From a virus: a stretch of 64,000 nucleotides of DNA. The notes below the pieces were generated by a model. It made no database searches and was not told where the DNA came from. It saw nothing but the letters and a program-made list of their open reading frames with translations. Positions 5,093 through 53,053 of the stretch are shown in pieces. Where the stretch lies: positions 1 through 64,000 of IMG/VR virus record IMGVR_UViG_3300045049_000070; one strand, written 5' to 3'. The position numbers and the translations under genes were made by a program. Within the stretch, counting starts at the first letter, position 1. Each line of letters starts with the position of its first letter.

Positions 5093-6214
5093 ATGAGCAG
5101 ACGAGTAGGTGCCTTACTTGGGCGCTTCGAACCGCGTCATCGCGGACACAATTCGATCATAGAACAGGCAGCACAGAAATGTGATCACTTGTTGGTACTG
5201 ATCGGCTCGGCGAACAGGCCGAGATCACTACGCAACCCGTTCACATACGAAGAGCGATGGGCTGACATGCGTCAGTACTTGAGCGAAAACTTGAAAATCG
5301 GGTTCAGCATCTATCCATTAAACGACTACCGCTATTCGAACCAACAATGGGTGACGGATACGTGCGCAGCAGTCGACCATTTGATGGACACCAATCATCA
5401 ATACTTTGCAGGCTTCGACAGGAAGCCAATCTTGTTTGGACACACAAAGCCAGATACTGGATATCTCCAGGACTTCAAGCTTTGGCCATACGAGGAGCTT
5501 CATTCCGGATGGGATGGGTGTGCTACTGAAATGCGGGACAAGGAATTTTCCTTTGCCGAGATGGGACAAGACAACGTCACATTCTCAGATCACTTGCAGT
5601 TGACAGGACAAGAACTGCATAACTTGCTTGCTGACCGGAAAGCTCTACAAAAAGAAGCAAAAGATTTCGCCACCTATCTATACAAAGACACCCTCCAGTT
5701 CGTGTGCAGTGATGTCGTAGTAGAGTGTGCTGGACATGTGTTGATGATCAAACGGGGCAATAGTCCAGGACTTGGGTGTTGGGCTTGGCCCGGTGGATTC
5801 AAGGAAAACAACGAAACGTTCTACGAGTGTGCTCTAAGAGAACTTCGTCAAGAGACAGGACTACGAATTCCATTACCCGCTTTGATGAGTTCTGCTGTTG
5901 AATTTGAAGGCAACAAGATGCCGGAAGCACAGCTTGTCAACTACAAGATATACGACAGCCCAGACCGCGACATGGGTATACCGAGAATCACGGTTGCCTA
6001 TCATCTGAAAGTACAGCCGAATCGCGATGGCACGATGCCTAAAACAAAGGCACGCGACGATGCTCGTGAGACACAGTGGGTTCCGTTTTACGACTTCCTG
6101 AATCATTACAAATGTCACAGTGATCACCAAGACATCGGCTACGATCTGCTGAACGCGTTTCCGACGCCTGCTCATTTGAATCCTGCGTATCCCAAGTACA
6201 GCAAAACCATCTAG
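5093..6214 (+). CDS. nadM: bifunctional NMN adenylyltransferase / Nudix (ADP-ribose) hydrolase, NadM-Nudix
   Basis: GRFEPRHRGH (HxGH), IGSAN...RNPFT, and Nudix box PGGFKENNETFYECALRELRQETG. Confidence 0.92.
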   Translation: MSRRVGALLGRFEPRHRGHNSIIEQAAQKCDHLLVLIGSANRPRSLRNPFTYEERWADMRQYLSENLKIGFSIYPLNDYRYSNQQWVTDTCAAVDHLMDTNHQYFAGFDRKPILFGHTKPDTGYLQDFKLWPYEELHSGWDGCATEMRDKEFSFAEMGQDNVTFSDHLQLTGQELHNLLADRKALQKEAKDFATYLYKDTLQFVCSDVVVECAGHVLMIKRGNSPGLGCWAWPGGFKENNETFYECALRELRQETGLRIPLPALMSSAVEFEGNKMPEAQLVNYKIYDSPDRDMGIPRITVAYHLKVQPNRDGTMPKTKARDDARETQWVPFYDFLNHYKCHSDHQDIGYDLLNAFPTPAHLNPAYPKYSKTI

Positions 6215-6221
6215 GACATCT

Positions 6222-6419
6222 ATGAAGATAGAAAGATCACACATCTTAGTCAAGAACGGTGTTGACGTACCTCAACGTCAAGTAGTGATGTCTGTGGATG
6301 AAGCCAAACAACTTGCGGAAGAACTAAGACCACACCTAACCGGATTTGTAGTTGGTGAACACAAGAAGTGTGAGCGATTATGCAAACTGGTTGGCGTGCA
6401 TCTCGATCTAGTCAATTAA
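6222..6419 (+). CDS. hypothetical protein
   Basis: TAGGA RBS. Confidence 0.6.
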   Translation: MKIERSHILVKNGVDVPQRQVVMSVDEAKQLAEELRPHLTGFVVGEHKKCERLCKLVGVHLDLVN

Positions 6420-6443
6420 CATCAATCAACTGGAGCAACAAAC

Positions 6444-7001
6444 ATGCAACAAGAAATAGCGCTTGGCTGCGAAGCCAAAGACTTGACGACTGGGCTTAAA
6501 GGTATCATCACAAGTCGCGTCGTTCTCATGAACGGAAACCTACGATTTATCTTGCAACCACCTTGTGCGCCGGGTGCTGACAAGATGCCAGATGGATATG
6601 AAATCGATGCCCAATCATTGGAGTATGTCAGTCAAGGCATCATGAAGAGCGGTATTCCGTGTCCTGCCGACACGGGAATCGAACTTGGAAATGAGTATGA
6701 AGACATCGTATCAGGCACTGTTGGAATTGCTATCGCACGTTACGATAGCATGAATGGATGCGTACGATACGTAATCCAAGGAAAAACCAAGAAAGATGCT
6801 AAGGAGCCAAACGTAGTCTACGTAGACTACTCTCAGCTGAAGCCTACAGGGAAGAACTCAGTCATGACTCATCTGAAGAAGGCAATCGAGAAGGCAAAGA
6901 AGCTGAGTTCCAAAGCTGAAGCAGATTCTATGCCAAAGGCCGCCCGTAGAGTTTCAACCGCCACTCCGGGTGGCCCCACAACGAAAGCACCGAGGTTCTG
7001 A
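6444..7001 (+). CDS. hypothetical protein with two tandem SH3/KOW-like repeats
   Basis: IALGCEAKDLTTGLKGII..MNG vs IELGNEYEDIVSGTVGIA..MNG. Confidence 0.8.
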   Translation: MQQEIALGCEAKDLTTGLKGIITSRVVLMNGNLRFILQPPCAPGADKMPDGYEIDAQSLEYVSQGIMKSGIPCPADTGIELGNEYEDIVSGTVGIAIARYDSMNGCVRYVIQGKTKKDAKEPNVVYVDYSQLKPTGKNSVMTHLKKAIEKAKKLSSKAEADSMPKAARRVSTATPGGPTTKAPRF

Positions 7002-7003
7002 CC

Positions 7004-7834
7004 ATGAATACAGAAAAAGATCTGCATGATTTTGGTGTCGGAGACATCGTACGTTGTGTTCGTCCAATGGGAGAATTTCTCAAGATTGGAAACGAATACA
7101 AGGTCACTTTTATATCGGCTGACGACATTTGTGTTGAGGGCTGGTCTTACAGGTGGGATAGGACACGGTTCACACTAGTAAGAAGAGCAGCAAAGACGTC
7201 AAAGAAGCGAAGAGATCAGTTATCCATGCCAGATGCAATGTCACCGTTCGAGGATCTTTTTGAATCGAAAGAGACAGCTCCGAAGAAATTTCAAGTAGGT
7301 GACATAGTCAGATGTATTGATCTCGACTATGGAAAACGACTCGAGTTAAATCGTGAGTACGAAGTTACGCACATTTCTGGCGATGGTAGTGTTGAGGTCC
7401 ATGGTTTTGAAGGTTTCCACTTCATAAAGAGACGCTTTGAACTCGTCTCTAGAAGGAGCGTTAATATAAACGATTTCATTACTAAGACGGCTAAAAGAAT
7501 TGCAAACGATTTAACGATTCCCGACAATATCCTACAGGATCCCGCACTTGTGTTCCCGTATGAAGTAACGTGGAAAACTGCACAGGAGTTAGAAAATCTT
7601 GCGGTTTGTGTCCTGAAGTCACGTCCAGTAGACGTATCTGTCAACTTAACCTTCAGTGAAGGCCCCAATAAGAATGGTGTTACCTTTGCTAAAGAATTGT
7701 CCTCAGCTACTGAAGCCAAAAAGCCAGTAGTGTTAGCCGCTCCATGTCCGAATGCATTGACGATGACCGAAATGCCGACTGTCTTTGGTCGTAGCGCAGC
7801 CTTGTGGGGTGCTTGCAATGCCTCGCTGGATTGA
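7004..7834 (+). CDS. hypothetical protein with two tandem FxVGDIVRC repeats
   Basis: FGVGDIVRCV..EYKVTFIS..RF.LV vs FQVGDIVRCI..EYEVTHIS..RFELV. Confidence 0.8.
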   Translation: MNTEKDLHDFGVGDIVRCVRPMGEFLKIGNEYKVTFISADDICVEGWSYRWDRTRFTLVRRAAKTSKKRRDQLSMPDAMSPFEDLFESKETAPKKFQVGDIVRCIDLDYGKRLELNREYEVTHISGDGSVEVHGFEGFHFIKRRFELVSRRSVNINDFITKTAKRIANDLTIPDNILQDPALVFPYEVTWKTAQELENLAVCVLKSRPVDVSVNLTFSEGPNKNGVTFAKELSSATEAKKPVVLAAPCPNALTMTEMPTVFGRSAALWGACNASLD

Positions 7835-8246
7835 CAACAAGGTAGAGCGGCCCACGATGACATGGAATGAACGAGTCCTTTTCGAGAAGCTGGGGCGCGA
7901 GATGTACGCGATGACGACGACCGTCCATTCTCCAAACATCCCGTTTGTTGAACAGTGCGAAATGATCCCCGGCATCTGGGAGCATCTTGTGCAGGAGCGC
8001 GACCGCTTACGGGAAATCGCCTCTGGTGTGGAAGGAACCGGAACCCATTCCAGTACAGAATACGAACGCATAACATCGTGGCTCCGCAATCTGGGGAACA
8101 AATACTTAGGTGATGGAATCCATGATGGAATACGTGCATCAACAATACTTGAAGTAATCGAAAGAGAAATTGGTAGCAGGAGACAACATGACAAAACCGA
8201 TTCCGACACAGGCACCACTACGGTTTCGCCTGCTGTGGAGGGCTGA
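7785..8246 (+). CDS. hypothetical protein (start uncertain)
   Basis: ORF filling the operon gap. Confidence 0.55.
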   Translation: MVVAQPCGVLAMPRWIDNKVERPTMTWNERVLFEKLGREMYAMTTTVHSPNIPFVEQCEMIPGIWEHLVQERDRLREIASGVEGTGTHSSTEYERITSWLRNLGNKYLGDGIHDGIRASTILEVIEREIGSRRQHDKTDSDTGTTTVSPAVEG

Positions 8247-8310
8247 AGTCCTCATCAACAATCTGAAGCAGACTTTTCTTTTCTCAACCGGCCATTCGAA
8301 AGGGGCTTGA
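8188..8310 (+). CDS. 40-aa ORF directly upstream of nadV (not in the ORF track)
   Basis: AGGAGA RBS; MTKPIPTQAPLRFRLLWRAEVLINNLKQTFLFSTGHSKGA*; stop 2 nt before the nadV ATG. Confidence 0.45.
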   Translation: MTKPIPTQAPLRFRLLWRAEVLINNLKQTFLFSTGHSKGA

Positions 8311-8312
8311 AA

Positions 8313-9908
8313 ATGGCAAACACCGAGCAACAAGAAGTTTATACCGACAACCAGATCGATCCGAACAAGGGTCCGATGCGCATCGACGGAGAACCTGTAT
8401 TCAGGTCTGAATACGAGAAAATGACGCAAAGCATTCCGTTCTACACGGACAGCTATAAACCATCAATGGATCCTCAGTATCCACCGGAGGTGGAAACCGT
8501 CCACAGCTATGGAGAATCGCGGGGTGCTCCAGTCGATCATGTGATGATGGCTGGAAACCAAGTCTTCGTCGACAAGTTGGCGGAAGGCACAAACATGCGT
8601 GAAGTCAATTTCGCACGTGAGTATTGGGCAGCGCATGGCGTACCCTTTCCGTACGAAATGTGGAAGACCATCGTCAAAGAATATGGTGGACGAATCCCAC
8701 TGACAATTCGTGCGGTACCAGAAGGGATTCTGATCCCGCCACGTAATCCGCTGGTGACCGTGGAGAACAACGGTGGGCGTGCAACTCGGGCCCTAACCAC
8801 ATGGGTAGAGACGATGGGTCTGTCGTATCTTTGGTACATGTCTACTGTTGCAACAAACGACTACTACCTCAGACAAACAATCGGGAAGTATTACGAATTG
8901 AGTGTCGACGCTGGTCTCTACGATCCAGGTCGTTTATTCCGCGACCACGACTTCGGATGGCGTGGCGTTGCTCCAGGAGCGGGTATTTACGGTGGAGGAG
9001 CGCACACGTTCAACTCGTTGGGCACTGACACATTCGGTTCTATCCCGTTCATGTGTTGGCACTATGGTGCGGCACCGAACGAGGTTGGATTCTCGATTCC
9101 GGCTATGGAGCACAGCACGGTTACTTCGTGGGGCAAGGATCGTGAAAACGACGCGTTCCTCAACATGACGGAAATCTACGCACATTCGAGTCGCCCATAT
9201 GCGATGGTGATAGACAGCTATGATCCGGAACGTGCTGTCGAGTGGATCACCAATCCTGATGGACCGATCGTCAAGATCCTGAAGGAGCGCAATGCCATCT
9301 GTGTGTTGCGTCCTGACAGTGGAAATCCGACCGAACTACTTCCAAAGTTGGCACAGATCGTAGCACGGAACGTTGGTTATACGACCAACAAGAAGGGCTA
9401 CAAGATCTTCAACTACTTCCGATTTATCTGGGGTGATGGTATCACGCACGAAGTCATCAATCGTATCGAGAACATGATGGTGTCTATCATGGGCTTCTCA
9501 GCAGAAAACTTCGCCTTTGGCCAAGGCGGAGCCAAACTCCAGTTGGTAGGTCGTGATGATCTCCAGTTCGCATACAAATGCTCGGCTGTGCGTTTAACCC
9601 ATGGTTCGTGGCGGAATGTCTATAAGCAGCCTGCTGGTATCTTGAACAAGAACTCGAAGATGGGTCTGGTTGAAACATTCGTTCTTGACCCAAGTAATTG
9701 GGAGTACGATGACATTTTGTATGTACGTGACATTCGCGACACCGAATCCATCGAAAGACTGAAGCTCGTTCCATTGATGGAAACTGTGTTCGAAAACGGA
9801 ATAGTGGAAAAACGATGGACCATAAAAGAAGTACGAGCGAACACTGAAAGAATCTACAAGAACGCTCCACAAGGTCACAGCGCTGGCGTTTACCCGCCTT
9901 TGGTGTGA
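8313..9908 (+). CDS. nadV: nicotinamide phosphoribosyltransferase (Nampt/NadV)
   Basis: TDSYKPS, HDFGWRG, GTDT, SIPAMEHS, VIDSYD, LRPDSG, WGDG and FAYKCS motifs. Confidence 0.95.
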   Translation: MANTEQQEVYTDNQIDPNKGPMRIDGEPVFRSEYEKMTQSIPFYTDSYKPSMDPQYPPEVETVHSYGESRGAPVDHVMMAGNQVFVDKLAEGTNMREVNFAREYWAAHGVPFPYEMWKTIVKEYGGRIPLTIRAVPEGILIPPRNPLVTVENNGGRATRALTTWVETMGLSYLWYMSTVATNDYYLRQTIGKYYELSVDAGLYDPGRLFRDHDFGWRGVAPGAGIYGGGAHTFNSLGTDTFGSIPFMCWHYGAAPNEVGFSIPAMEHSTVTSWGKDRENDAFLNMTEIYAHSSRPYAMVIDSYDPERAVEWITNPDGPIVKILKERNAICVLRPDSGNPTELLPKLAQIVARNVGYTTNKKGYKIFNYFRFIWGDGITHEVINRIENMMVSIMGFSAENFAFGQGGAKLQLVGRDDLQFAYKCSAVRLTHGSWRNVYKQPAGILNKNSKMGLVETFVLDPSNWEYDDILYVRDIRDTESIERLKLVPLMETVFENGIVEKRWTIKEVRANTERIYKNAPQGHSAGVYPPLV

Positions 9909-13748: not shown

Positions 13749-14368
13749 CTTTCGTTCTTTCTGTTGTAGAGTTTCGCTGTGCTTGTGTCTTCAACTTGGG
13801 TCATTAGACGATAGAATCGCTTCCGACCCATGGTCCCAAAATCTTTCTGTCCCAGAGCTTGATGCAACGCGTACACGCCAATTAGGCTTGCATCTAATTG
13901 GTGAGGTGCCGTCTTGCACAGACGATATTCATCTTTCAGCTCAATTCCATGACGAGCAACCGCGTTCTTCCACACAGCTGCCGGAATATACGCGTCTGGC
14001 AATCCTAGCGATTGCAATAAGCCGAGCATCATGTTCACGGCTTCAACAGTCGGTCCTTTGATGCCTCGTGTCATATATCGTTCGCCATAAATCCCCCTTG
14101 GCTTCCATCTGTCCACCATTTCTGTTGCCCATTCGAGAAACGCACGACTCTGTTCCTGTCGCTCCCTGTGATCCTTCAGGTTATTTATCGGACACGGACA
14201 TAATCCATTGATCAGCACGTCGAATTTTACTCGATCGTCAATCAATCGGCCTTCAACGATCGAAAATCCATAGTTCTTGGAACCCGGGTCGTGGGCAAAG
14301 ATTCTTAGCGCATTTTTGTTCTGTGATCTGGTGGACATAGCATTCTCATTTACAAAGCGGACTTGCAT
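13745..14368 (-). CDS. ruvC: RuvC-like Holliday junction resolvase
   Basis: IFAHDPGSKNYG, YGERY, WK and HQLDA catalytic pattern; true start may be MSTRSQ at about 14338. Confidence 0.75.
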   Translation of the reverse strand: MQVRFVNENAMSTRSQNKNALRIFAHDPGSKNYGFSIVEGRLIDDRVKFDVLINGLCPCPINNLKDHRERQEQSRAFLEWATEMVDRWKPRGIYGERYMTRGIKGPTVEAVNMMLGLLQSLGLPDAYIPAAVWKNAVARHGIELKDEYRLCKTAPHQLDASLIGVYALHQALGQKDFGTMGRKRFYRLMTQVEDTSTAKLYNRKNER

Positions 14369-14377
14369 CCTGGGCCT

Positions 14378-14387
14378 TAATTTGATT
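14378..14387 (+). promoter_or_regulatory. putative late-promoter motif TAATTTGATT
   Basis: Exact copies at 16423, 29428 and 36691; one-mismatch copies at 17105 and 62869; all lie just upstream of gene starts. Confidence 0.65.
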
Positions 14388-14419
14388 CAGTATTAAATTG
14401 CAGTCCAGGAGCTGAGAAC

Positions 14420-15691
14420 GTGCCTTTTCAACGCCGCTCGAACAATAAAATCCTTCCGCCAAATAGTCGCACAGCGGATGTGGCTCGGAAGACGCTGGAT
14501 GCTCTGGTTCCAGTCCAACAGCGAAAATATGCGAACGCATTCAAAGCAAATGGATATGAAACGTTGGTCTACAGTAGATTGAAACACGGAACTCCGTGTT
14601 CATGTCAATCTTCTAGACGAGCACAGGCCAGCATTCTTGACGAGCAAACAGGAAAATTGAAGAAAGGCCAGATGGAGAAAATATTGACCGGAGGACTATC
14701 TTTCCGTGTCAATCCATACGGCGTAAAAGAACCGATGCGTGACGATCTGCGTGCCCCTCGTGGTGGTCAATCTCAACCCCGAGACGAGCAGATTTATGAC
14801 GTGCTAGACAACAGTAAACCAGTTGCTGATTGGGAATTAGAGGACGACGTACTCGATAATCCTAATGCGACAGTCACTAGGGCAGCGAATGGTGACGAAG
14901 ATGATGCACAGGCTGATATTGTTGATCAAACAGCAGATGATGCTAGCGAGCTGGTGGACATTGAAGCGTATGCTAATGACAGCAAATGCGCAGTTTGTTT
15001 CGGGACCGGATATGTCGGTGGATTTACGTTGCTGAACGGATTGCGCTTAGTGATATGCACACAATGGCCTGCCATCTCCAATCTGGTGGGAACTATTGAA
15101 CCAAACCGTGTTCCGCATTCATTCTTTACGACAGATGTGTCGTTTACCGTCACGTTACCAAAAGGAGTGATTGGTGTTGATGCATTCAGATTGTGGAACA
15201 ACGATTTGCAGATTCACCCACTGACCATCACAATTGACGGTCTTTCGTATTCGATGGACTTGTTAAGAGCGTTTTGTGACGGACGTCCGCATACGTTCAG
15301 ATTCCAGTTTGAACGCCTGACGTATTTCACGCACGTAGAGCTCCAATTCAATTTGTCGGCCATTCCTGCTCTATTCGATTTCCCACGCGGGACGTTTGGA
15401 GCAAACATGCAGAACGTGGAAAATTTGGAGGACATGCAGTTGTATGCGAGTCCAGAGATTCCAAACATCGAACGTGAAGACATGCTGGTCGAATGTACGT
15501 TGGGGAAGGCATTGGTCGTCAGTTCAGTAACTGATTGGAAGACCAACAAACGTGATATTCTGGGCTGGGACGTGAACGTGCGTGCGCTCCAACCATCAGA
15601 ACTATTGAACTTGCTCCCACGTCGTCACCCAACGCATCAGAAATCCACTTACATGATAAGAGACAATATTGATGGTGGACGGAGAACGTAA
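14420..15691 (+). CDS. putative virion neck/head-completion protein with Zn-binding motif
   Basis: CSC ... CAVCFGTGYVGG; first gene after the late motif; AGGAG RBS. Confidence 0.55.
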   Translation: MPFQRRSNNKILPPNSRTADVARKTLDALVPVQQRKYANAFKANGYETLVYSRLKHGTPCSCQSSRRAQASILDEQTGKLKKGQMEKILTGGLSFRVNPYGVKEPMRDDLRAPRGGQSQPRDEQIYDVLDNSKPVADWELEDDVLDNPNATVTRAANGDEDDAQADIVDQTADDASELVDIEAYANDSKCAVCFGTGYVGGFTLLNGLRLVICTQWPAISNLVGTIEPNRVPHSFFTTDVSFTVTLPKGVIGVDAFRLWNNDLQIHPLTITIDGLSYSMDLLRAFCDGRPHTFRFQFERLTYFTHVELQFNLSAIPALFDFPRGTFGANMQNVENLEDMQLYASPEIPNIEREDMLVECTLGKALVVSSVTDWKTNKRDILGWDVNVRALQPSELLNLLPRRHPTHQKSTYMIRDNIDGGRRT

Positions 15692-16167
15692 TGCCAATCA
15701 CGAACAAGACTGTAGATTTGTGGTCACAAGTTCAACTGAAGGTCGATGGACGTCCTGTCAAAAGCGGTGATTTCTATGACATCAGTTATGATGTTTATCT
15801 GGATAACGAGTATGTCGGTTATTTGATCTCGGACTACGCATTGAATACTACTGTCCAGAATTTCTTAGACAAATTGGCTCCAGATCAATCACGATTAGCT
15901 GATGTTATGTCTGCTGTTCCTTCACGATATAGATTCAACTACTATTATCTGAACTACCTAGAAATCAAAAGAAAGTGGCAAGGTCAGGGAATAGGTGGAA
16001 TCGCGTTGCAGAAATGGTTTTCCAAGTTGAAGTCCCCAGCGATGGTTGGATTAACGCCCGCAAAGATTGCGAATGTCCCAGTAGATATCGTCCGTAAGTT
16101 CTATCTTAAGAATGGATTCAAGAAAGTAAATCCGCATTATTTTGTCACTTTCATTAAGAGCAAATAG
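15691..16167 (+). CDS. GNAT-family acetyltransferase with MPITNK leader
   Basis: YLEIKRKWQGQGIG (acetyl-CoA motif A) and KFYLKNGF (motif B). Confidence 0.8.
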   Translation: MPITNKTVDLWSQVQLKVDGRPVKSGDFYDISYDVYLDNEYVGYLISDYALNTTVQNFLDKLAPDQSRLADVMSAVPSRYRFNYYYLNYLEIKRKWQGQGIGGIALQKWFSKLKSPAMVGLTPAKIANVPVDIVRKFYLKNGFKKVNPHYFVTFIKSK

Positions 16168-16168
16168 T

Positions 16169-16405
16169 ATGGAAACCGTTTACGCTAACATTAGACGATT
16201 GGGTCGTATTCTAGCCGTGGCAAATAATCGTGGAATCGGTGAAGGGCTCGATAATCCATTTGCAACCGAAGCCGATATTCTCAACGATGATGTGGGAACC
16301 CAAGAAGAATATGAACATGCTGATCGTATGGGATTAAATGGACGTCCGATCGAAAAACCCACGGGAACAGGCATGGATCGAGAATCTATGGGGATGCAAT
16401 CGTGA
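16169..16405 (+). CDS. small hypothetical protein
   Basis: METVYANIRRLGRILAVA..., ATG 2 nt after the upstream stop. Confidence 0.55.
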   Translation: METVYANIRRLGRILAVANNRGIGEGLDNPFATEADILNDDVGTQEEYEHADRMGLNGRPIEKPTGTGMDRESMGMQS

Positions 16406-16420
16406 TCGGCATTTCGTGTG

Positions 16421-16535
16421 GGTAATTTGATTCCATACACAAGATAGTTGGGTGGCGGTGGTTGGACCAGAATTCATTCTGGAAACCGTTCCGTTCCGTC
16501 GTCATTCACTTAGGATTAGGAAATTATGGCGATCA
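16421..16535 (+). repeat. promoter/structured 5' leader, copy 1 (direct repeat)
   Basis: 30-nt exact match GATTCCATACACAAGATAGTTGGGTGGCGG plus CGTCATTCA and AGGAAATTATGGCGATCA shared with 17103-17201. Confidence 0.9.
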
Positions 16536-17107
16536 CTAATCGTCCAGAGACTGCTGAGACCTATAAAGACTATATTGAGATTCTGAAAAGGAAATATAAA
16601 CTGCGAGTATTAGGTGATGGAGCGTTCGGAACAGTGTTCCAGCACCCCACCTTGAAGAACGTAGCAGTGAAGGTCTACAGACAAGTGAAATGGATGTCAG
16701 CAACCAAATGGTTGGAATGGTGCAAGAAGCATCCGGAGAATCCTTACGTTCCTAAGATCTATAAGGTTGATTCTCTCCAAATAGAACAAGAAGGCTATCA
16801 ACGATACCTGCATAACGTGGTGTTTATGGAGAAACTATCTCGCGTTTCATCCACCTTTGTCGACGAGGTTCTTCAGAAAACAGGAGCATCAACCCATGTC
16901 TTGTATAAGACAGTTGATGAAGGAAGACTTGTGTACGAATTCTATTCGGATTCACGCAAGAATGTTCGTACTCTGAAAGACAAGAAATTGGCAGAAGTGC
17001 TATTGGCGATAGATCAGTTTGGCGATCAGTCTGATGGAACAGATTTGCGATATTCAAATTTCCTTCGTCGGGATCAACAATTGGTGTTCGTTGATCCTGT
17101 GAGGTAA
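16526..17107 (+). CDS. Ser/Thr protein kinase (T7 gp0.7-like) with MAITNR leader
   Basis: LGDGAFGTVFQHP..VAVKV, PYVPKIY, DLRYSNF, FVDPV. Confidence 0.8.
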   Translation: MAITNRPETAETYKDYIEILKRKYKLRVLGDGAFGTVFQHPTLKNVAVKVYRQVKWMSATKWLEWCKKHPENPYVPKIYKVDSLQIEQEGYQRYLHNVVFMEKLSRVSSTFVDEVLQKTGASTHVLYKTVDEGRLVYEFYSDSRKNVRTLKDKKLAEVLLAIDQFGDQSDGTDLRYSNFLRRDQQLVFVDPVR

Positions 17108-17201
17108 TTGGATTCCATACACAAGATAGTTGGGTGGCGGCTTCGATTTGATTTATCGAAAACCGAACCGCCGTCATTCATAGAGGAAATTATGGCGATC
17201 A
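17103..17201 (+). repeat. promoter/structured 5' leader, copy 2 (direct repeat)
   Basis: Matches copy 1; the kinase TAA stop is the start of the TAATTGGATT motif. Confidence 0.9.
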
Positions 17202-18415
17202 AACGATTGATGGGCTGTACTGAGATTGCTGACGCAACGCAGTATCGTAGCCTTACCGACGTTGAAAGACATCTGCAACAGATTAAAGATCAACTAAACG
17301 ACGCTGACGCGCTTCTGCGTACATACCGACTTCAATTCGCACGAGCTGAGACCTCGGCCATCAAATTCACAGTCGGTCAGGATATTGATGGCCCCAAGAA
17401 GGGCGGAAAGATAATCACGAATCAGATTGACAAAGTGGTGATTCCCAAGATGGATGCTCTGCGCTCCAACTTTGAGGTCGTCAATCAACTGGCAGAAAAG
17501 GTCCAAGAACTAGAGACCATGTATGCGTCGGTCGAAATCAATTTTCGCGGCGTTCGTGGGCAGCCAGATGTGCTGAAGTCGATCAAGACTATGAAAGCCG
17601 GAGCCGAAAAGAAGCTGCAGGATGCTCTCGACTTTCTAAACGATATCGGCACCAAATACGCCCCAACGGCCTTCAAGGAAATGACCAAGAAGGTTGCGGC
17701 GCGTCTGAACGAAGATCTTGACTTTGAGAAAGCCAAGTCTGCTGTATACGCTACTGAGATGGCGACAGGAGAATTGTCTTTCACTCTTTATATTGAACTA
17801 AAAAACCTCTCAGACGAAAACGGCGAAACATGGCCCAAATTCTACATCGTTCTGACGTGCGTTTTGGTTCCAATAGCTACCGACAAAACGAAACTGAGTG
17901 TCGAAACCTACGTCACTGTAATGCACGATTTCCAGCCTCCAGGACGTTTTGATGCGGGAAAACGAGTGACGACTGATAAGGAAGCGCTGGCCGAAATCGG
18001 ACATCTACTTAGCCTAGAAAATATCGCGACAGCTATCGGCACTTTGCCTCATAATCTGGTAGGGATTGACAAGAAGTTCTTGAAAACTGGAGCCGAGCGT
18101 GTACGTGATGTAGAGGTAGATGAATCTAGCTTCACGTTCTGGTTCCTGAAAGCGGTAAAAGAAGCAGAAGCACGTTCGTTGATGAATACTCTGTATCCGC
18201 AAGTTAAAGCAATGCTGTCACACATTAAGCGCGCTCAGGTAAAGATGCGACTGCTGGAAGCCAGCGACGGAGGATGGGGCGCGAAATACAGTCTGGTCAA
18301 TCTGGCTCGTGACGACCAGATTTCTGTGCAAGATCTTGATTGGCTGAAGAAGCAATTCAAGATGAGTGACGAAAAGCTACGTGAAGTAGTGAAGATCGTC
18401 AACAAAGGAAATTAA
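17192..18415 (+). CDS. putative virion protein with coiled-coil N-terminal half
   Basis: Start reassigned to the ATG at 17192 (GAGGAAAT RBS); MAIKRL... Confidence 0.7.
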   Translation: MAIKRLMGCTEIADATQYRSLTDVERHLQQIKDQLNDADALLRTYRLQFARAETSAIKFTVGQDIDGPKKGGKIITNQIDKVVIPKMDALRSNFEVVNQLAEKVQELETMYASVEINFRGVRGQPDVLKSIKTMKAGAEKKLQDALDFLNDIGTKYAPTAFKEMTKKVAARLNEDLDFEKAKSAVYATEMATGELSFTLYIELKNLSDENGETWPKFYIVLTCVLVPIATDKTKLSVETYVTVMHDFQPPGRFDAGKRVTTDKEALAEIGHLLSLENIATAIGTLPHNLVGIDKKFLKTGAERVRDVEVDESSFTFWFLKAVKEAEARSLMNTLYPQVKAMLSHIKRAQVKMRLLEASDGGWGAKYSLVNLARDDQISVQDLDWLKKQFKMSDEKLREVVKIVNKGN

Positions 18416-18423
18416 GACATATC

Positions 18424-18858
18424 ATGAAGATCAGACTTCAAGCCGCTGTTCGTCTTAAGAAAGTTTTAGCCGCAGCACTAAAATCCTTCCCTACGTTAAG
18501 CAAATATCCGACAATCGTGAAAGCAGTCGAGGAAATTGGACTCGACAACAACAGCAGAAAAGACTCTTATTATGGACGCGCCGAGTGGTATCTTACCAAA
18601 GGGAAATATAAGCCTGCAGAATTAGAAGCAACATGCAAAGAACTTTCCGGACAGAATGTCAGTAAGCTCAAGAATCCAAAGGCTATTGAGATGTATGGAA
18701 AGAACGGAAACTTCTTAGAAGTTCTGGCTATAGGCGAAGATAGGGATCAAAGAGATGTTATGTCCCGTTCACCGAAATACAAACGTGTGTTTGACTTTCT
18801 AGCCGATGTATTCGACGGTGCAGAGTGTCCTATCCACTCGCTATTCAGAGGTGAATAA
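18424..18858 (+). CDS. hypothetical protein with type-B leader
   Basis: MKIRLQAAVRLKKVLA. Confidence 0.75.
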   Translation: MKIRLQAAVRLKKVLAAALKSFPTLSKYPTIVKAVEEIGLDNNSRKDSYYGRAEWYLTKGKYKPAELEATCKELSGQNVSKLKNPKAIEMYGKNGNFLEVLAIGEDRDQRDVMSRSPKYKRVFDFLADVFDGAECPIHSLFRGE

Positions 18859-19134
18859 ATGAGGATTCAAGCTGTCGCACGGCTTAAAGAAGCCGCTGGT
18901 GTTCTAGACGTTAAACAGAAACAGAAGATACAGAGTGGTCTAGCACAGATATCTGAAGGAATGGCGATCATCAGAGTTGGCCTTAATACGTTGAAACCAA
19001 TTGTTGATGTTCTCAAGAAGAATGATGGAAGTTCTTACGTCGATCATGCAAGTGTCACTAACTCACTCAAAGATTTTGAGTTTGTTTTCAAAGCACTTAA
19101 AGACGCGATTAAAGACGACGACAAAGGCATCTAA
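18859..19134 (+). CDS. hypothetical protein with type-B leader
   Basis: MRIQAVARLKEAA; GAGGTG RBS. Confidence 0.75.
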   Translation: MRIQAVARLKEAAGVLDVKQKQKIQSGLAQISEGMAIIRVGLNTLKPIVDVLKKNDGSSYVDHASVTNSLKDFEFVFKALKDAIKDDDKGI

Positions 19135-19919
19135 TGAAACTGCAAGCACTTGCGCGCCTGTTGTCGCTAGCAGGTGCTTATACCGAAGACAGACTGACAC
19201 GCGAACAAGCAAAGAAACTAGCGCTTCAGTTACGTCCGCTAATCAAACGTCATTGTCAGGGTTTCCAGCTAGCGGGCTCATATCGTCGCGGCAAGACTGA
19301 TATTGGTGACTTAGATTTTGTGGTAGTCAATTGCGATATGGCTGCCTTGCTCTCTGACTTGGTTGAACATGCTGCGGCAACAGAAGCTCCTCGTGCAGGA
19401 TCCGGAATGTTGACCGTCACTGTGCCGTTCGGAAAGAAGAGTATTCAAGTCGAGTTTGTAAACGTCAAGCCTCGCGCGATAGGTAGCGGATTGCTTCATA
19501 GTACGGGAGGTGCAGATTTCAACAAAGGTCTGCGCAGTTACGCCAAGAGTAAGGGAATGCTGCTCAATCAGCATGGTCTGTTCCGTGCTGATAACAAGAG
19601 ATTCTTAGCCGGACGTACTGAAGAAGATGTGTTCGACAAGCTAGGGTGGGCGTTCGTTCCACCTAAAGAACGTGGCTTCAGTTTTATGACCTTGAAGCCC
19701 AAATATCTTATCGATCCATACAAGAATAACCTGTTGTTGAAGAAACCTCAAGGTGAAGGTAAAGTATGGAAGGTCAAATCCAAATCCGATCCAAACAAGC
19801 TCTATTTCGTGACACTAAAACCGAATGGCAAATGGACATGCACATGTCCGCAGTTTGTGTTCAGAAAAGTAGACTGCAAACACATAGATCTAGTTAAAGA
19901 GAGAACAGGTACCAAATGA
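19134..19919 (+). CDS. minimal family X DNA polymerase with C-terminal SWIM zinc finger and type-B leader
   Basis: AGSYRRGKTDIGDLDFV, HSTGG..FN..LR..AK.KG..LNQHGL, CTCPQF...CKHI; starts MKLQALARL. Confidence 0.9.
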   Translation: MKLQALARLLSLAGAYTEDRLTREQAKKLALQLRPLIKRHCQGFQLAGSYRRGKTDIGDLDFVVVNCDMAALLSDLVEHAAATEAPRAGSGMLTVTVPFGKKSIQVEFVNVKPRAIGSGLLHSTGGADFNKGLRSYAKSKGMLLNQHGLFRADNKRFLAGRTEEDVFDKLGWAFVPPKERGFSFMTLKPKYLIDPYKNNLLLKKPQGEGKVWKVKSKSDPNKLYFVTLKPNGKWTCTCPQFVFRKVDCKHIDLVKERTGTK

Positions 19920-29419: not shown

Positions 29420-29488
29420 GACGACCGTAATTTGATTACGTACCCTAGAGGTCGCTGCCCACCAATTCAATTTGCCCGGAGATCGAAT

Positions 29489-30022
29489 ATGTCCCAACCT
29501 TCGGAGCAGTTCTTGGACGTCACTGTCCAGGCACAGTCTCCGCCAGACGTTGAACAAAACGATGATGTAACTCTTGAAGATATCATCACAGCTTTTCTAG
29601 ACGTCAATCCAACTCCCTCAGACGATCAAATACATACGTTGGCTGCGCTTCTGAACGTTCCCTTTGAGGATTTTGAAGCCGTTATCTATAAGATGTTTTC
29701 GCGCTACGTGAAAGATCCAGAATCTTACGCCGTAGACGATGCAATTAACGGATTAACCCAACGAGATGGACCAGAAGACGATCCGGTAGAAAACCTACTC
29801 GTTTGCTTCTTTTCCTACCATCCGGATCCAACAGATGTTGAGATCCACCAGCTCTCGGGGTTGATCGATATGACGCCCGAAGAACTGGAAGAAATTCTGT
29901 ATGCGATGCTATCAGAGATCAACGACGATCAGGAAGCAGAAATAGCATCAGATGAAATAGCTACTGAACCGTGTGAGCAAGATGAGTTCCCGTACCAGAA
30001 CGATCAGCTCCATACACCGTGA
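29489..30022 (+). CDS. acidic protein with duplicated helical domain
   Basis: FLDVNPTPSDDQIHTLA..L vs FFSYHPDPTDVEIHQLS..I; preceded by TAATTTGATT at 29428. Confidence 0.75.
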   Translation: MSQPSEQFLDVTVQAQSPPDVEQNDDVTLEDIITAFLDVNPTPSDDQIHTLAALLNVPFEDFEAVIYKMFSRYVKDPESYAVDDAINGLTQRDGPEDDPVENLLVCFFSYHPDPTDVEIHQLSGLIDMTPEELEEILYAMLSEINDDQEAEIASDEIATEPCEQDEFPYQNDQLHTP

Positions 30023-36741: not shown

Positions 36742-36984
36742 ATGATCGACAACCAGATCCTATCCATGACTGAAGAAGAGATAGATTCAGCAGTCGTTTC
36801 CATTGTCTCTCAGTTTGAGGATAATGAAAGGGATTTTCAACTCGCCAGCCAGATGTACAATAGTCTGTACTTCCGTGACGTTTCGCCAGCGTTGCGTAAA
36901 CGTGCGTGTTTGGGTCTAAGGGACCACTTCACAAATAGAACCAACAATTACTGGAACACGCAGGCTGAGAACCAATTCTTGTAA
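36742..36984 (+). CDS. hypothetical protein
   Basis: TAGGA RBS; preceded by both TAATTTGATT (36691) and CTGTAAAT (36715). Confidence 0.7.
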   Translation: MIDNQILSMTEEEIDSAVVSIVSQFEDNERDFQLASQMYNSLYFRDVSPALRKRACLGLRDHFTNRTNNYWNTQAENQFL

Positions 36985-51250: not shown

Positions 51251-52474
51251 GTGACTAGAGCCCGCTTTAGAACTGAGCGGACGTTTGAAGACACGCAGAA
51301 CTTCTCCAAAGAACCAAGAGCCGAAGACATCGTAGATGTTCTGAAGTATCCACCAAAAGATTGGCTTACTGTTAGAGCAGTAGGTCCAGTAGTGGCAAAT
51401 GGTGGACATTGGGTAAATACGGAGCCTCCTGCAAAGGACAAGAAGACGAAAGCCTTCTATGTTCCTTGTCTTGCGTTCGATCCAAAAACAGAAGAACGAG
51501 ATAGCACCAAATATTGTGCGTGGTGCGCTGATACAAGCGGTTGGGTTCGTCCTGCTCTCGACTACTGGCAGAACTTCATTGTGCGTGAACTGGAAGAGAA
51601 CATGCCTGCGAAGTTGAAAGAGCCAACGAAGAAGGAACGGAAAACTGGCTTCAAGGAAAAGGGCAGCAACTCCTGGACTCCTTGCAAAGCTGGTCGTATT
51701 ACACCCGGCTTCATGCGTGACTTGAAGAAGTCAGCGTCTCTTAATCGTCACAAAAACAAAGACGGAGAGAAGAAGGCATATGCTCTGAGCCATGTTAAGT
51801 GCGGTGTAGATCTGGAAATCATGTATGACCCGGATGAAGCACCAGCCAAGAAGTATTCGCTGCAGAAGGGTGAGAAGCGCACGCCGCTTACAGAAGAACA
51901 GCAAGAATATCTATTGCAGCCCATCGAGAATCTTAACATTACGTTTAAGGCAGAAGCTGAAGCAGATGGCGATGAAGAAAAACTTGCCAAATTGCTAAAA
52001 GCACTCGAAAAGAAGTGGACGTCTGAGCACGAAGGTTGGCTCAAGCGTATGAAGAAGAAATGGAAGTCCAAGTTCGGATCAGAGGGTGACGACGAGGACG
52101 ATGACGATGATGACGATGATGAGGACGATGATGATCGTCCTAAGGGTAAAGGCAAGAAGGGTAAGAAGTCTGCAGGCAAGAAATCTAGTCGAGACGAAGA
52201 CGATGACGACGATTCCGACGAGGATGATGACGACAACGAATTCGACTCAGACAAGAAGTCTTCAAAGAAGTCCAAGAAGTCAAAGCATCGTGATGATGAA
52301 GACGATGACGAAGATGACGATGAAGATTCCGACGACGATGACGACGAAGATGAGGACGACGAGCCCAAGTCTAAGAAGAAGTCGAAGAAGGGCAAAAAGT
52401 CCAAGAAGTCACGTGACGACGATGATGACGAGGACGAAGATGACGATGATGACGACGAAGACGATGATGACTGA
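51251..52474 (+). CDS. putative single-stranded DNA-binding protein (gp32-like) with long D/E- and K-block tail
   Basis: HWV..PC...CAWC Zn site, G.DLEI.YD, acidic tail; located between pol and recA. Confidence 0.65.
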   Translation: MTRARFRTERTFEDTQNFSKEPRAEDIVDVLKYPPKDWLTVRAVGPVVANGGHWVNTEPPAKDKKTKAFYVPCLAFDPKTEERDSTKYCAWCADTSGWVRPALDYWQNFIVRELEENMPAKLKEPTKKERKTGFKEKGSNSWTPCKAGRITPGFMRDLKKSASLNRHKNKDGEKKAYALSHVKCGVDLEIMYDPDEAPAKKYSLQKGEKRTPLTEEQQEYLLQPIENLNITFKAEAEADGDEEKLAKLLKALEKKWTSEHEGWLKRMKKKWKSKFGSEGDDEDDDDDDDDEDDDDRPKGKGKKGKKSAGKKSSRDEDDDDDSDEDDDDNEFDSDKKSSKKSKKSKHRDDEDDDEDDDEDSDDDDDEDEDDEPKSKKKSKKGKKSKKSRDDDDDEDEDDDDDDEDDDD

Positions 52475-52535
52475 GTCGACAACCAATCAATCTGAAATTA
52501 ACCACAATCACGTAAACTCCGGAGTTTAACACCAA

Positions 52536-53027
52536 ATGGCAAAGATGGATAAAGCAGTCGCGAAGAAGTTTGAAGAAGTCGACGAGAAGCTGGAAGCTTT
52601 GAAGAAGGCTCTTGCTAAACTCGCAAAGGGTGGCAAGGCCGACAAGAAGGGTAAGGCGGATGACGACGAGGATGACGAAGACTTCGACCTCGACGAAGAC
52701 GACGACGTAGAAGAGTCTGGAAAGAAGGGCAAGAAAGCCGCAAAGAAGGCAGCTAAAAAGGCTGGAAAGAAAGGCGGTAAGAAAGCCAAGGACGAAGACG
52801 ATGACGACGATTCCGACGAGGATGACGACGACTCTGATGATGACGAGGACGACGAGCCAAAAGGCAAGAAGGGTAAGAAGGCTGCCAAGAAAGCTGCTAA
52901 GAAGGGTGGCAAGAAGGGCAAAAAGTCTGATGACGACGATGACGATGACGACGATTCCGACGAGGATGACGACGGAGACGACGATGATGACGACTCCGAT
53001 GATGACTTCGACGATGACGACGAGTAA
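52536..53027 (+). CDS. low-complexity Lys/Ala- and Asp-block protein (histone-like/IDP)
   Basis: KKAAKKAAKK repeats alternating with poly-D tracts; GGAG RBS; followed by a terminator. Confidence 0.8.
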   Translation: MAKMDKAVAKKFEEVDEKLEALKKALAKLAKGGKADKKGKADDDEDDEDFDLDEDDDVEESGKKGKKAAKKAAKKAGKKGGKKAKDEDDDDDSDEDDDDSDDDEDDEPKGKKGKKAAKKAAKKGGKKGKKSDDDDDDDDDSDEDDDGDDDDDDSDDDFDDDDE

Positions 53028-53053
53028 TCTTAATCACCTAGGCTGATTAGAAT

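Follow-up and report, generated by a model that had tools for sequence, protein, structure and literature searches.

In lambdoid phages, morons are extra genes that come with their own promoter and terminator and lie between genes that are adjacent in related phages. In the T4-type phages, non-core genes are flanked by PeSL cassettes, units that run from a stop codon through a strong promoter and a stem-loop to a Shine-Dalgarno site and a start codon, and these cassettes mediate insertion, deletion and replacement between close relatives, according to the parts of the two reports drawn on here (Arbiol et al. 2010, PMC2839356; Comeau et al. 2014, PMC4122927). For the T4 genes e, soc, 49 and I-TevI, the portion of a further report used here describes the read-through transcripts as closed and the transcripts from the embedded late promoters as open (PMC3014915). 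Here we analyse a locus in the IMG/VR record IMGVR_UViG_3300045049_000070 (72,411 bp), of which bases 1-64,000 form the stretch that we call the window. The element in question is an intergenic cassette that lies directly 5' of the gene for a conserved 407-aa protein (G407) and is found a second time further upstream, with a gene for a small kinase-like protein between the two copies (Table 1).

The two direct copies, 99-115 nt long, bracket the 193-codon kinase-like open reading frame (ORF), and the repeats, the identical blocks of 30 and 18 nt and the stop codon listed in a preliminary description of this DNA were each recovered at the coordinates it gave. The first 38 nt of the copies (16421-16458 vs 17103-17140) match at 97%, and the 30-nt block (16429-16458 = 17111-17140) is the only such pair in the window at up to 3 mismatches, two matches being obtained in 0/100 shuffles. 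At the other end, an 18-mer with the ribosome site (AGGA) and ATGGCGATCA is identical at 16518-16535 and 17184-17201; a third copy is absent at up to 3 mismatches, and two copies appeared in 0/100 shuffles. In the whole record CGTCATTCA is present at 16500 and 17172 only, GGGTGGCG has no further occurrence beyond the two cassettes, and the 8 nt preceding the ATG are common only to the kinase gene and G407. Global alignment of copy 1 (115 nt) with copy 2 (99 nt) gave 88 identical columns out of 116, the differences being clustered within the 20-40 nt at the centre and at an indel of 6 nt ahead of the ribosome site. The same comparison of copy 2 with the leader of the closest relative, the metagenome contig L004 (79% aa identity in G407), gave a lower value (73/106), and the 30-nt block shared by the copies includes 11 nt that differ in the L004 orthologue (ACAAGATAGTT vs ACACAGACACC). 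Because the identical block spans positions that vary in L004, and because the 8 nt before the ATG are unique to the pair, the two units are homologous copies, true duplicates rather than look-alike promoters. Each of them keeps one ancestral-looking feature, copy 1 the consensus form of the box and copy 2 a perfect middle stem like that of L004. As had been claimed, the kinase stop is the first TAA of copy 2 (17105-17107), inside the box TAATTGGATT. The right edge of the duplication is uncertain, since ATGGCGATCA occurs at 5 places in the record and Met-Ala-Ile (MAI) is the commonest N-terminal tripeptide.

The preliminary description had suggested that related phages be searched for an empty site with a single leader. 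Such a site, free of the kinase, is present in both informative relatives, L004 and L003, the latter taken from the complete 248,884-bp record G001 (53% aa identity in G407). In L004 the order is a homologue of the 423-aa gene G423, a 142-aa homologue of the 87-aa gene of the window, an unrelated 120-aa gene, one cassette and the G407 orthologue. This cassette consists of the box, GGGTGGCGG, a 4-bp hairpin, CCGCCGTCATTCA, the ribosome site and ATGGCGATCAAACG; it occurs once, directly 5' of the G407 orthologue, and the 15 nt of the copy-1 box are found there too. In L003 a 53-nt leader lies between a 242-aa GNAT-like gene and the G407 orthologue; it holds a shortened cassette with TTTGATTCCATA as the core of the box, a 6-bp GC hairpin and ATGGCAATCAAACG. 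Homology of the window to L004 and to L003 begins at the box, and tblastn with 4 kinase family queries at E ≤1 found nothing in L003, L004, L005 or the whole of G001. The difference from both relatives, one cassette and no kinase, is thus bounded by the cassette. Since L004 and L003 each carry one copy before the orthologue, the cassette appears natively to belong to G407. What the slot 5' of it holds differs from genome to genome (the kinase here, the unrelated 120-aa gene in L004, nothing in L003), and by this comparison the interval between the 87-aa gene and the G407 cassette qualifies as a cargo hotspot.

The reading that we favour, with a probability of about 0.62, is that the unit is a portable G407 expression cassette that was duplicated around the kinase gene by recombination; as a recombination cassette it is well supported. 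It would combine a promoter-like box specific to the phage with a stem-loop in the 5' leader, a Shine-Dalgarno site and ATGGCGATCA as the start. A recombination event would have left a second cassette upstream, with the kinase-like gene fused in frame between the copies, copy 1 providing the kinase start region and the TAA of the copy-2 box its stop, and the kinase would be driven by the transcription and translation signals of G407 itself. The direct repeats, 682 nt apart, would permit precise loss or exchange of the kinase by homologous recombination. In this scheme we infer that the box is active as a promoter, that the stem-loop has a role, that the kinase was gained or relocated here and not lost elsewhere, and that it can be excised by recombination. 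It had been proposed before that the kinase was acquired, or can be lost, by recombination between the repeats; the homologous copies and the kinase-free relatives with a single leader support this, and two distant loci (L138 and L139) in which a kinase occurs without a duplicated leader speak against it.

An assembly artefact confined to one data set does not explain the arrangement. In a 28.7-kb Logan contig the whole 5 kb around the cassettes is present with 0 differences, and the right junction is bridged (16852-17250) by a 399-nt contig of another run; as both runs come from the same sample, this check is only partly independent. The DNA runs that contain the sequence of the record are soil and rhizosphere metagenomes. 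CheckV estimates the record to be 29% complete, which implies a jumbo phage of ~250 kb, and in the window most genes are on the + strand. The nearest cultured phages, found through G407 at 23-25% identity, are Achromobacter phage Motura and Burkholderia phages BcepSauron, BcepSaruman and BCSR5, and on these similarities the host genome of the cassette is that of a Motura/Sarumanvirus-related jumbo phage, not a T4-type phage. In the consulted portion of a 2026 preprint (10.64898/2026.10.21.760668), the Sarumanvirus phages are placed far from the phiKZ-like nucleus-forming phages. Single-protein queries of IMG/VR with G407 and the kinase found no close relative, blastn of 15000-19000 against cultured phages gave no match, and the G407 profile had none in the GTDB genome contigs. 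A 14-mer scan of viral contigs returned at least 118 random matches, the leader motif being present as well only at the two loci of the record itself and in L004; a more specific box-to-start pattern had the L003 genome as its sole match in viral contigs.

The kinase ORF, single in the record, matches phrog_15752, annotated as a T7 gp0.7-type kinase, at E 8.8e-12 over residues 14-192. A 4-sequence alignment (A3) has G30, G32, K49, D173, N178 and D190 as invariants, which we take to be the Gly-rich loop, the beta-3 lysine, the catalytic Asp and Asn and a terminal metal-binding Asp; all 4 proteins end one residue past a shared QLVF-x-DPV. In Pfam the ORF gave only the sub-threshold YrbL-PhoP_reg (16.2 bits vs a cut-off of 31.5). 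Its AlphaFold2 model is weak (predicted local distance difference test score, pLDDT, 60.2); the best Foldseek E was 9e-3, with template modelling (TM) scores ≤0.31 and nothing at E 0.001, and all the matches listed were protein kinases. A PDB profile search found kinase N-lobes at E 0.003-1. By profile search the family of mini-kinases has 2,738 cluster representatives at E ≤0.001, mostly of 170-210 aa, and 0 of the 12 members scanned passed the Pfam cut-off. Some members (P0018, P0019, P0042, P0052 and P0079) are 650-1,340 aa long with 3-5 matched stretches and are either tandem kinase modules or fused gene calls. No match to the kinase was found by tblastn in 50,697 cultured-phage records.

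According to the preliminary description, duplication would supply the MAI start together with the other signals. The start is indeed inside the identical 18-mer, but this effect is not separable from a genome-wide habit: the places at which ATGGCGATCA recurs have been mentioned, and the first 18 nt of the kinase are nearer to the start of gene 26496 (16/18, read by eye) than to that of G407. MAI opens 7 of the 115 ATG ORFs of at least 60 aa, with starts at 16526, 23433, 26496, 28318, 30941, 31300 and 31811 in the window, and it is also found in G001 at 160649, 168669 and 171086. Several small genes have the common start MAI-x-N-R/K-I/V-x-A. This recurrence could reflect a preferred kind of translation start or an N-terminal peptide common to these genes.

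A profile scan of IMG/VR with the kinase gave three further loci (L138, L139 and L140). In L138 and L139 the order is a G423 homologue (34% identity, E 6e-70), a G407 homologue (28%, E 5e-43) and, directly 3' of it, the kinase; the junctions of G407 and kinase overlap or measure 2 nt and have neither box nor leader. The three genes form a tightly packed trio at L138 548-3998 and at L139 1785-3516. In L138 a second kinase paralogue follows straight after the first, in tandem, and in L140 the kinase has a different context. Motura has the G423 and G407 homologues followed by a gene that is not a kinase: its assignment as one was rejected at an hhalign probability of 0.9%. Relatives with the kinase and no duplicated leader had been named beforehand as evidence that would contradict the proposal, and they were found in part, in L138 and L139, but with the kinase on the other side of G407. 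Because these two loci carry a kinase adjoining a G407 homologue, the neighbourhood of kinase and G407 appears to be old but patchy, and the kinase upstream of G407 in a duplicated cassette would be specific to the lineage of the window. Two routes fit these gene orders: relocation, for example by tandem duplication of cassette-G407-kinase and then deletion of the first G407 body, or re-acquisition from another phage via recombination in the cassette. The kinase and G407 may be functionally linked.

These distant loci also carry the case for an opposite history, which we think unlikely: the order cassette-kinase-cassette-G407 would be ancestral for the subgroup, L004 and L003 would have lost the kinase via the repeats, and the window would preserve the unexcised state. 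The link of kinase and G407 homologue in L138 and L139 agrees with such a history, as does the similar divergence of the two genes (34% and 30% identity for the kinase, 28% for G407), which is expected for long co-residence, and recombination in either identical block would leave a single functional cassette as in the relatives. However, in L138 and L139 the kinase follows G407, without a cassette and across junctions that overlap or are 2 nt long, which argues that its upstream position is not ancestral; the identical 30-nt block differs from that of L004, favouring copying or conversion after the L004 split; and the L004 slot is filled by a different gene without a second cassette.

The promoter-like box was then followed through the record. 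Its sequence TAATTTGATT occurs exactly in the 72,411 nt 4 times on the + strand and 0 times on the - strand, where 0.097 are expected per strand (Poisson P = 3.4e-6). Counting the copy-2 variant, all five boxes precede a start codon, by 42, 103, 87, 61 and 51 nt, and the four that have a co-directional upstream ORF are all placed at -2 to +18 nt of its stop. Where the copy-2 box has a G, the remaining 4 sites in the record have a T, as do all 4 found in the relatives; L004 has TTAATTTGATG at the place of the box at 14378. The three box sites away from the cassettes share only ~10-15 nt, and the aligned sites read TAATTTGATT, two or three bases and then RTA. Because of the number of exact boxes, their confinement to the coding strand and their position 42-103 nt before starts, the box is probably a phage promoter element, and at 14378, where it heads a rightward block after leftward ORFs, a promoter is required. 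From these sequence features the promoter reading is plausible, though unproven. At 14372-14406, and at ~1535-1575 in L004, the box of the G423 site supplies the 5' strand of a 9-11-bp hairpin, and the 3' arm has a pair-preserving change between the two genomes (G-U here, G-C in L004).

Folding predicts a stem-loop between box and ribosome site in each of the four leaders (copy 1, copy 2, L004 and L003). In the RNAalifold consensus of copy 1, copy 2 and L004, TGGGTGGCG pairs with CGTCATTCA, three G-U pairs included, and an 11-pair middle stem (UGGGUGGCGG with its partner CCGUCAUUCA) is conserved in the three; 9 of its pairs are invariant, 2 have one-sided changes and 0 are compensatory. The two substitutions in the middle stem of copy 1 both keep the pairing as G-U. 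The inner hairpins CCAGAA/TTCTGG (copy 1) and TTCGAT/ATCGAA (copy 2) were recovered by folding the inner segments alone, and when the copy-2 leader was folded as a whole its inner pairing came out slightly different; both hairpins and the 5'/3' pairing with G-U had been noted before and are borne out by these folds. The inner hairpins of the four leaders are unrelated in sequence, with shuffle fractions of 0.105, 0.103, 0.213 and 0.004 (Fisher combined P 0.003), and the whole-leader z-scores are -1.0, -1.7, -1.4 and -2.9, the last for L003. The earlier wording of a conserved RNA structure thus holds as far as the stem-loop is predicted in 4/4 leaders and goes too far in view of the 0 compensatory changes and z-scores of only -1.0 to -2.9. 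Selection for the leader structure is suggested by the folding models; these hold no evidence of covariation, which four leaders are too few to demonstrate. As terminators the leader hairpins were rejected because they lack a T-run, and terminator-like sites were absent from the + strand of 14200-18600. In Rfam the leaders had no match; the only item was a sub-threshold CRISPR-DR at 14554, which is unrelated.

The box is predicted to pair with UAUGGC(G/A)AUCAAA, the start region, in the leaders of copy 2, L004 and L003, closing each leader over the ribosome site and the AUG, and in copy 1 the core of this helix can form, since both arms are inside the duplicated blocks. Compared with random pairs of genome windows, the duplex energies are unexceptional (null fractions 0.23, 0.20, 0.14 and 0.03), three of the four leaders falling in the bulk of the null distribution, and the helix as a translational gate is a hypothesis only, drawn from folding models. 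It leads to an alternative that we hold to be rather improbable, namely that the unit is no promoter and exerts its effect chiefly in the RNA, as a site of processing or as a translational operator, with the box as the 5' arm of helices in read-through transcripts; the duplication would then have copied an RNA regulatory element. The enclosure of ribosome site and AUG in three leaders fits this, and so do the L003 leader (z -2.87, with 0/200 shuffles folding as well), the local hairpin with its pair-preserving partner change at 14378 and in the L004 counterpart, and the small hairpins that hold the boxes at 29428 and 36691 in centroid folds. Read-through RNA is also likely, because the surrounding genes are co-directional and tightly packed. 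On the other hand, apart from the unexceptional energies and the empty Rfam search, the geometry of the partner is different at each site, and one box heads a transcription unit that must have a promoter. The promoter and RNA-level readings would be compatible by analogy with T4 gene e, going by the part of that report used here (PMC3014915). That there was no duplication at all, the two sites being independent promoters and leaders of the same class made alike by shared functional constraint, is very improbable: the box does recur at three further sites and ATGGCGATCA starts recur in the record, but those box sites share just the ~10-15 nt given above, the 30-nt identity includes positions variable in the L004 orthologue, and neither GGGTGGCG and CGTCATTCA nor the 8 nt before the ATG are found elsewhere.

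Several observations weigh against the duplication of a portable promoter cassette around newly gained cargo. The centre of the copies (~20-40 nt) is too diverged for a simple recent duplication when the flanks are 100% identical; this misfits simple neutral decay, and gene conversion in the flanks, a replaced hairpin or a donor allele would be needed. Given its adjacency to the G407 homologue in L138 and L139, the kinase may have been resident for long and not be new cargo. Composition was uninformative on a foreign origin and gives no sign of one, since at a GC content of 0.426 the kinase is no outlier among its neighbours (0.40-0.48). The relatives with 5' DNA context are 2 only. No RNA run with the sequence of the record was among the listed runs. 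A deletion or joint variant was absent from the Logan contigs of 3 runs of one sample, contigs being a format that drops rare variants. A scan of 14200-18600 for the sigma-70 consensus gave 7 sites vs 7.1 expected, none of them at either cassette. When one mismatch is tolerated, the window has no excess of the box (11 vs a shuffle mean of 10.2), nor is the box enriched in G001, where TTTGATT occurs 12 times forward and 12 times in reverse. Finally, the complete G001 has no match to a multisubunit RNA polymerase domain (Rpb2_6); a search of G001 for the T7-type RNA polymerase family was also blank, as was its control, and is uninformative.

A more far-reaching version of the favoured reading, which we regard as doubtful, is that of a gene-capture module. 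Here the box would double as the strand of a helix over its own ribosome site and start, the unit would offer ready-made start and stop, and the kinase would be kept beside G407 because both act together. Copying the cassette would install a foreign or relocated ORF in frame, timed both transcriptionally and translationally, with the cargo removable via the repeats.

Table 1. Coordinates in the window of the cassette copies, their parts, the two genes and the further boxes.
Feature	Start	End	Strand	Remarks
Cassette copy 1	16421	16535	+	115 nt: box, structured leader, ribosome site, first 10 nt of kinase ORF; direct repeats D1, D3, D5
Cassette copy 2	17103	17201	+	99 nt; orthologous position before G407; orthologous leaders in L004, L003
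Box copy 1	16423	16437	+	TAATTTGATT plus CCATA; matches consensus form in L004
Box copy 2	17105	17119	+	TAATTGGATT plus CCATA; T-to-G variant; its TAA is the kinase stop
Predicted leader stem-loop, copy 1	16449	16508	+	Middle stem 16449-16459 with 16498-16508; inner hairpin 16467-16472 with 16477-16482
Predicted leader stem-loop, copy 2	17131	17180	+	Middle stem 17131-17141 with 17170-17180; inner hairpin 17142-17147 with 17155-17160
Kinase-like ORF	16526	17107	+	193 aa; unique segment 16536-17102; start in copy 1, stop in copy 2
G407	17192	18415	+	Conserved 407-aa protein, putative native cassette owner; 11 homologues besides itself
Exact box	14378	14387	+	42 nt 5' of the 423-aa gene (G423); head of rightward block after four leftward ORFs
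Exact box	29428	29437	+	9 nt past previous stop; 61 nt before ATG at 29489
Exact box	36691	36700	+	5 nt past previous stop; 51 nt before 80-aa ORF at 36742

In the G407 homologues M1 and A2 are invariant and K4 and L6 nearly so. G407 has no PHROG match and belongs to no known family; its AlphaFold2 model (pLDDT 70.3) has no Foldseek match to a PDB fold at E ≤0.001, and the ESM Atlas gave no usable match. A Pfam hit to VPS28 (26 bits) was taken as spurious coiled-coil similarity. As G407 is without an assignable function, calling it a late gene, as had been done, is unsupported. The genes 3' of G407 (18424, 18859, 19134, 22317 and 23433), otherwise unrelated, share an N-terminal motif of a hydrophobic residue, Q/x, A, x, A, R, L, K/R and E, for example MRIQAVARLKE, MKLQALARLL and MIIQAALRLRAAS. 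It is also found in L003 at 7269, L004 at 6385, L139 at 802 and 3513 and L141 at 5110, in relatives as distant as Motura, and may be a common targeting or processing signal. One of these genes (19134-19919) encodes a 261-aa protein with the palm and thumb of DNA polymerase beta and a C-terminal SWIM zinc finger, which is conserved in L003 (6499-7272). Elsewhere in the window, 5093-9908 encodes an NAD salvage pair, a fusion of adenylyltransferase/cytidylyltransferase and Nudix (phrog_395) and a nicotinamide phosphoribosyltransferase (phrog_448, E 8e-102). At 52040-53030 long tracts encode Asp/Glu runs alternating with Lys-rich runs, and dozens of repeat copies at a spacing of 9-15 nt extend over at least two ORFs (51251-52474 and 52536-53027).

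Modular shuffling mediated by cassettes is known from the T4-type phages, and here it would occur in an unrelated lineage of soil jumbo phages, with a unit whose box is not sigma-70-like and whose reach is from the stop codon to the first codons. If the gene-capture reading is true, the cassette would be a self-contained module that installs removable cargo in frame. A known mechanism would be extended and current understanding not overturned, and the locus offers testable handles: a candidate promoter consensus (TAATTTGATT, two or three bases, RTA) for phages for which the part of the preprint cited here names no promoter (10.64898/2026.10.21.760668), a putative cargo hotspot between two conserved genes, and a widespread family of mini-kinases of 170-210 aa without a Pfam family, whose link to G407 is kept in two gene orders.

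Like a moron, the kinase is an extra gene with an expression signal inserted between genes that are adjacent in relatives; unlike in a moron, the signal appears to be a copy of the cassette of a neighbour, and no terminator is predicted in 14200-18600. The cargo shares with the T7 gp0.7-type kinases the putative Gly-rich loop, VAVK lysine, D-x4-N and C-terminal D, but it is a minimal form of 193 aa that ends right past the last conserved Asp. The gating of the T4 genes is resembled in that promoter DNA would encode the 5' strand of a helix sequestering the ribosome site and the AUG, a layout predicted in copy 2, L004 and L003; here, however, the helix is predicted only, AU-rich, bulged and energetically unexceptional, and the box class is unrelated to the T4 late promoter TATAAATA. 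The closest likeness in composition is to the PeSL cassettes. Both are composite intergenic units from the upstream stop through promoter and stem-loop to Shine-Dalgarno site and start (here the kinase TAA in the copy-2 box, and AGGA and ATG in the identical 18-nt block), with the stem-loop predicted in copy 1, copy 2, L004 and L003 and its position relative to the promoter box varying. In both, copies flank non-core genes in plastic regions, the differences between relatives are bounded by the cassette, and direct copies give the homology for deletion or exchange. PeSL cassettes are present in many copies per genome, concentrated in plastic regions, and their recombination gives deletions or mini-circles. 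As to copy number, the 72-kb fragment (~29% of the genome) has 5 boxes and 2 full cassettes, the other three sites being box only. The differences are the missing sigma-70 -35/-10 consensus, in place of which there is a phage-specific 10-15-mer, a genome that is not T4-type, the lack of a U-tract and of a predicted terminator, and an identity that reaches into the first codons. Since it has no sigma-70 consensus and its genome is not T4-type, the cassette is not a PeSL, but by analogy it would work like one.

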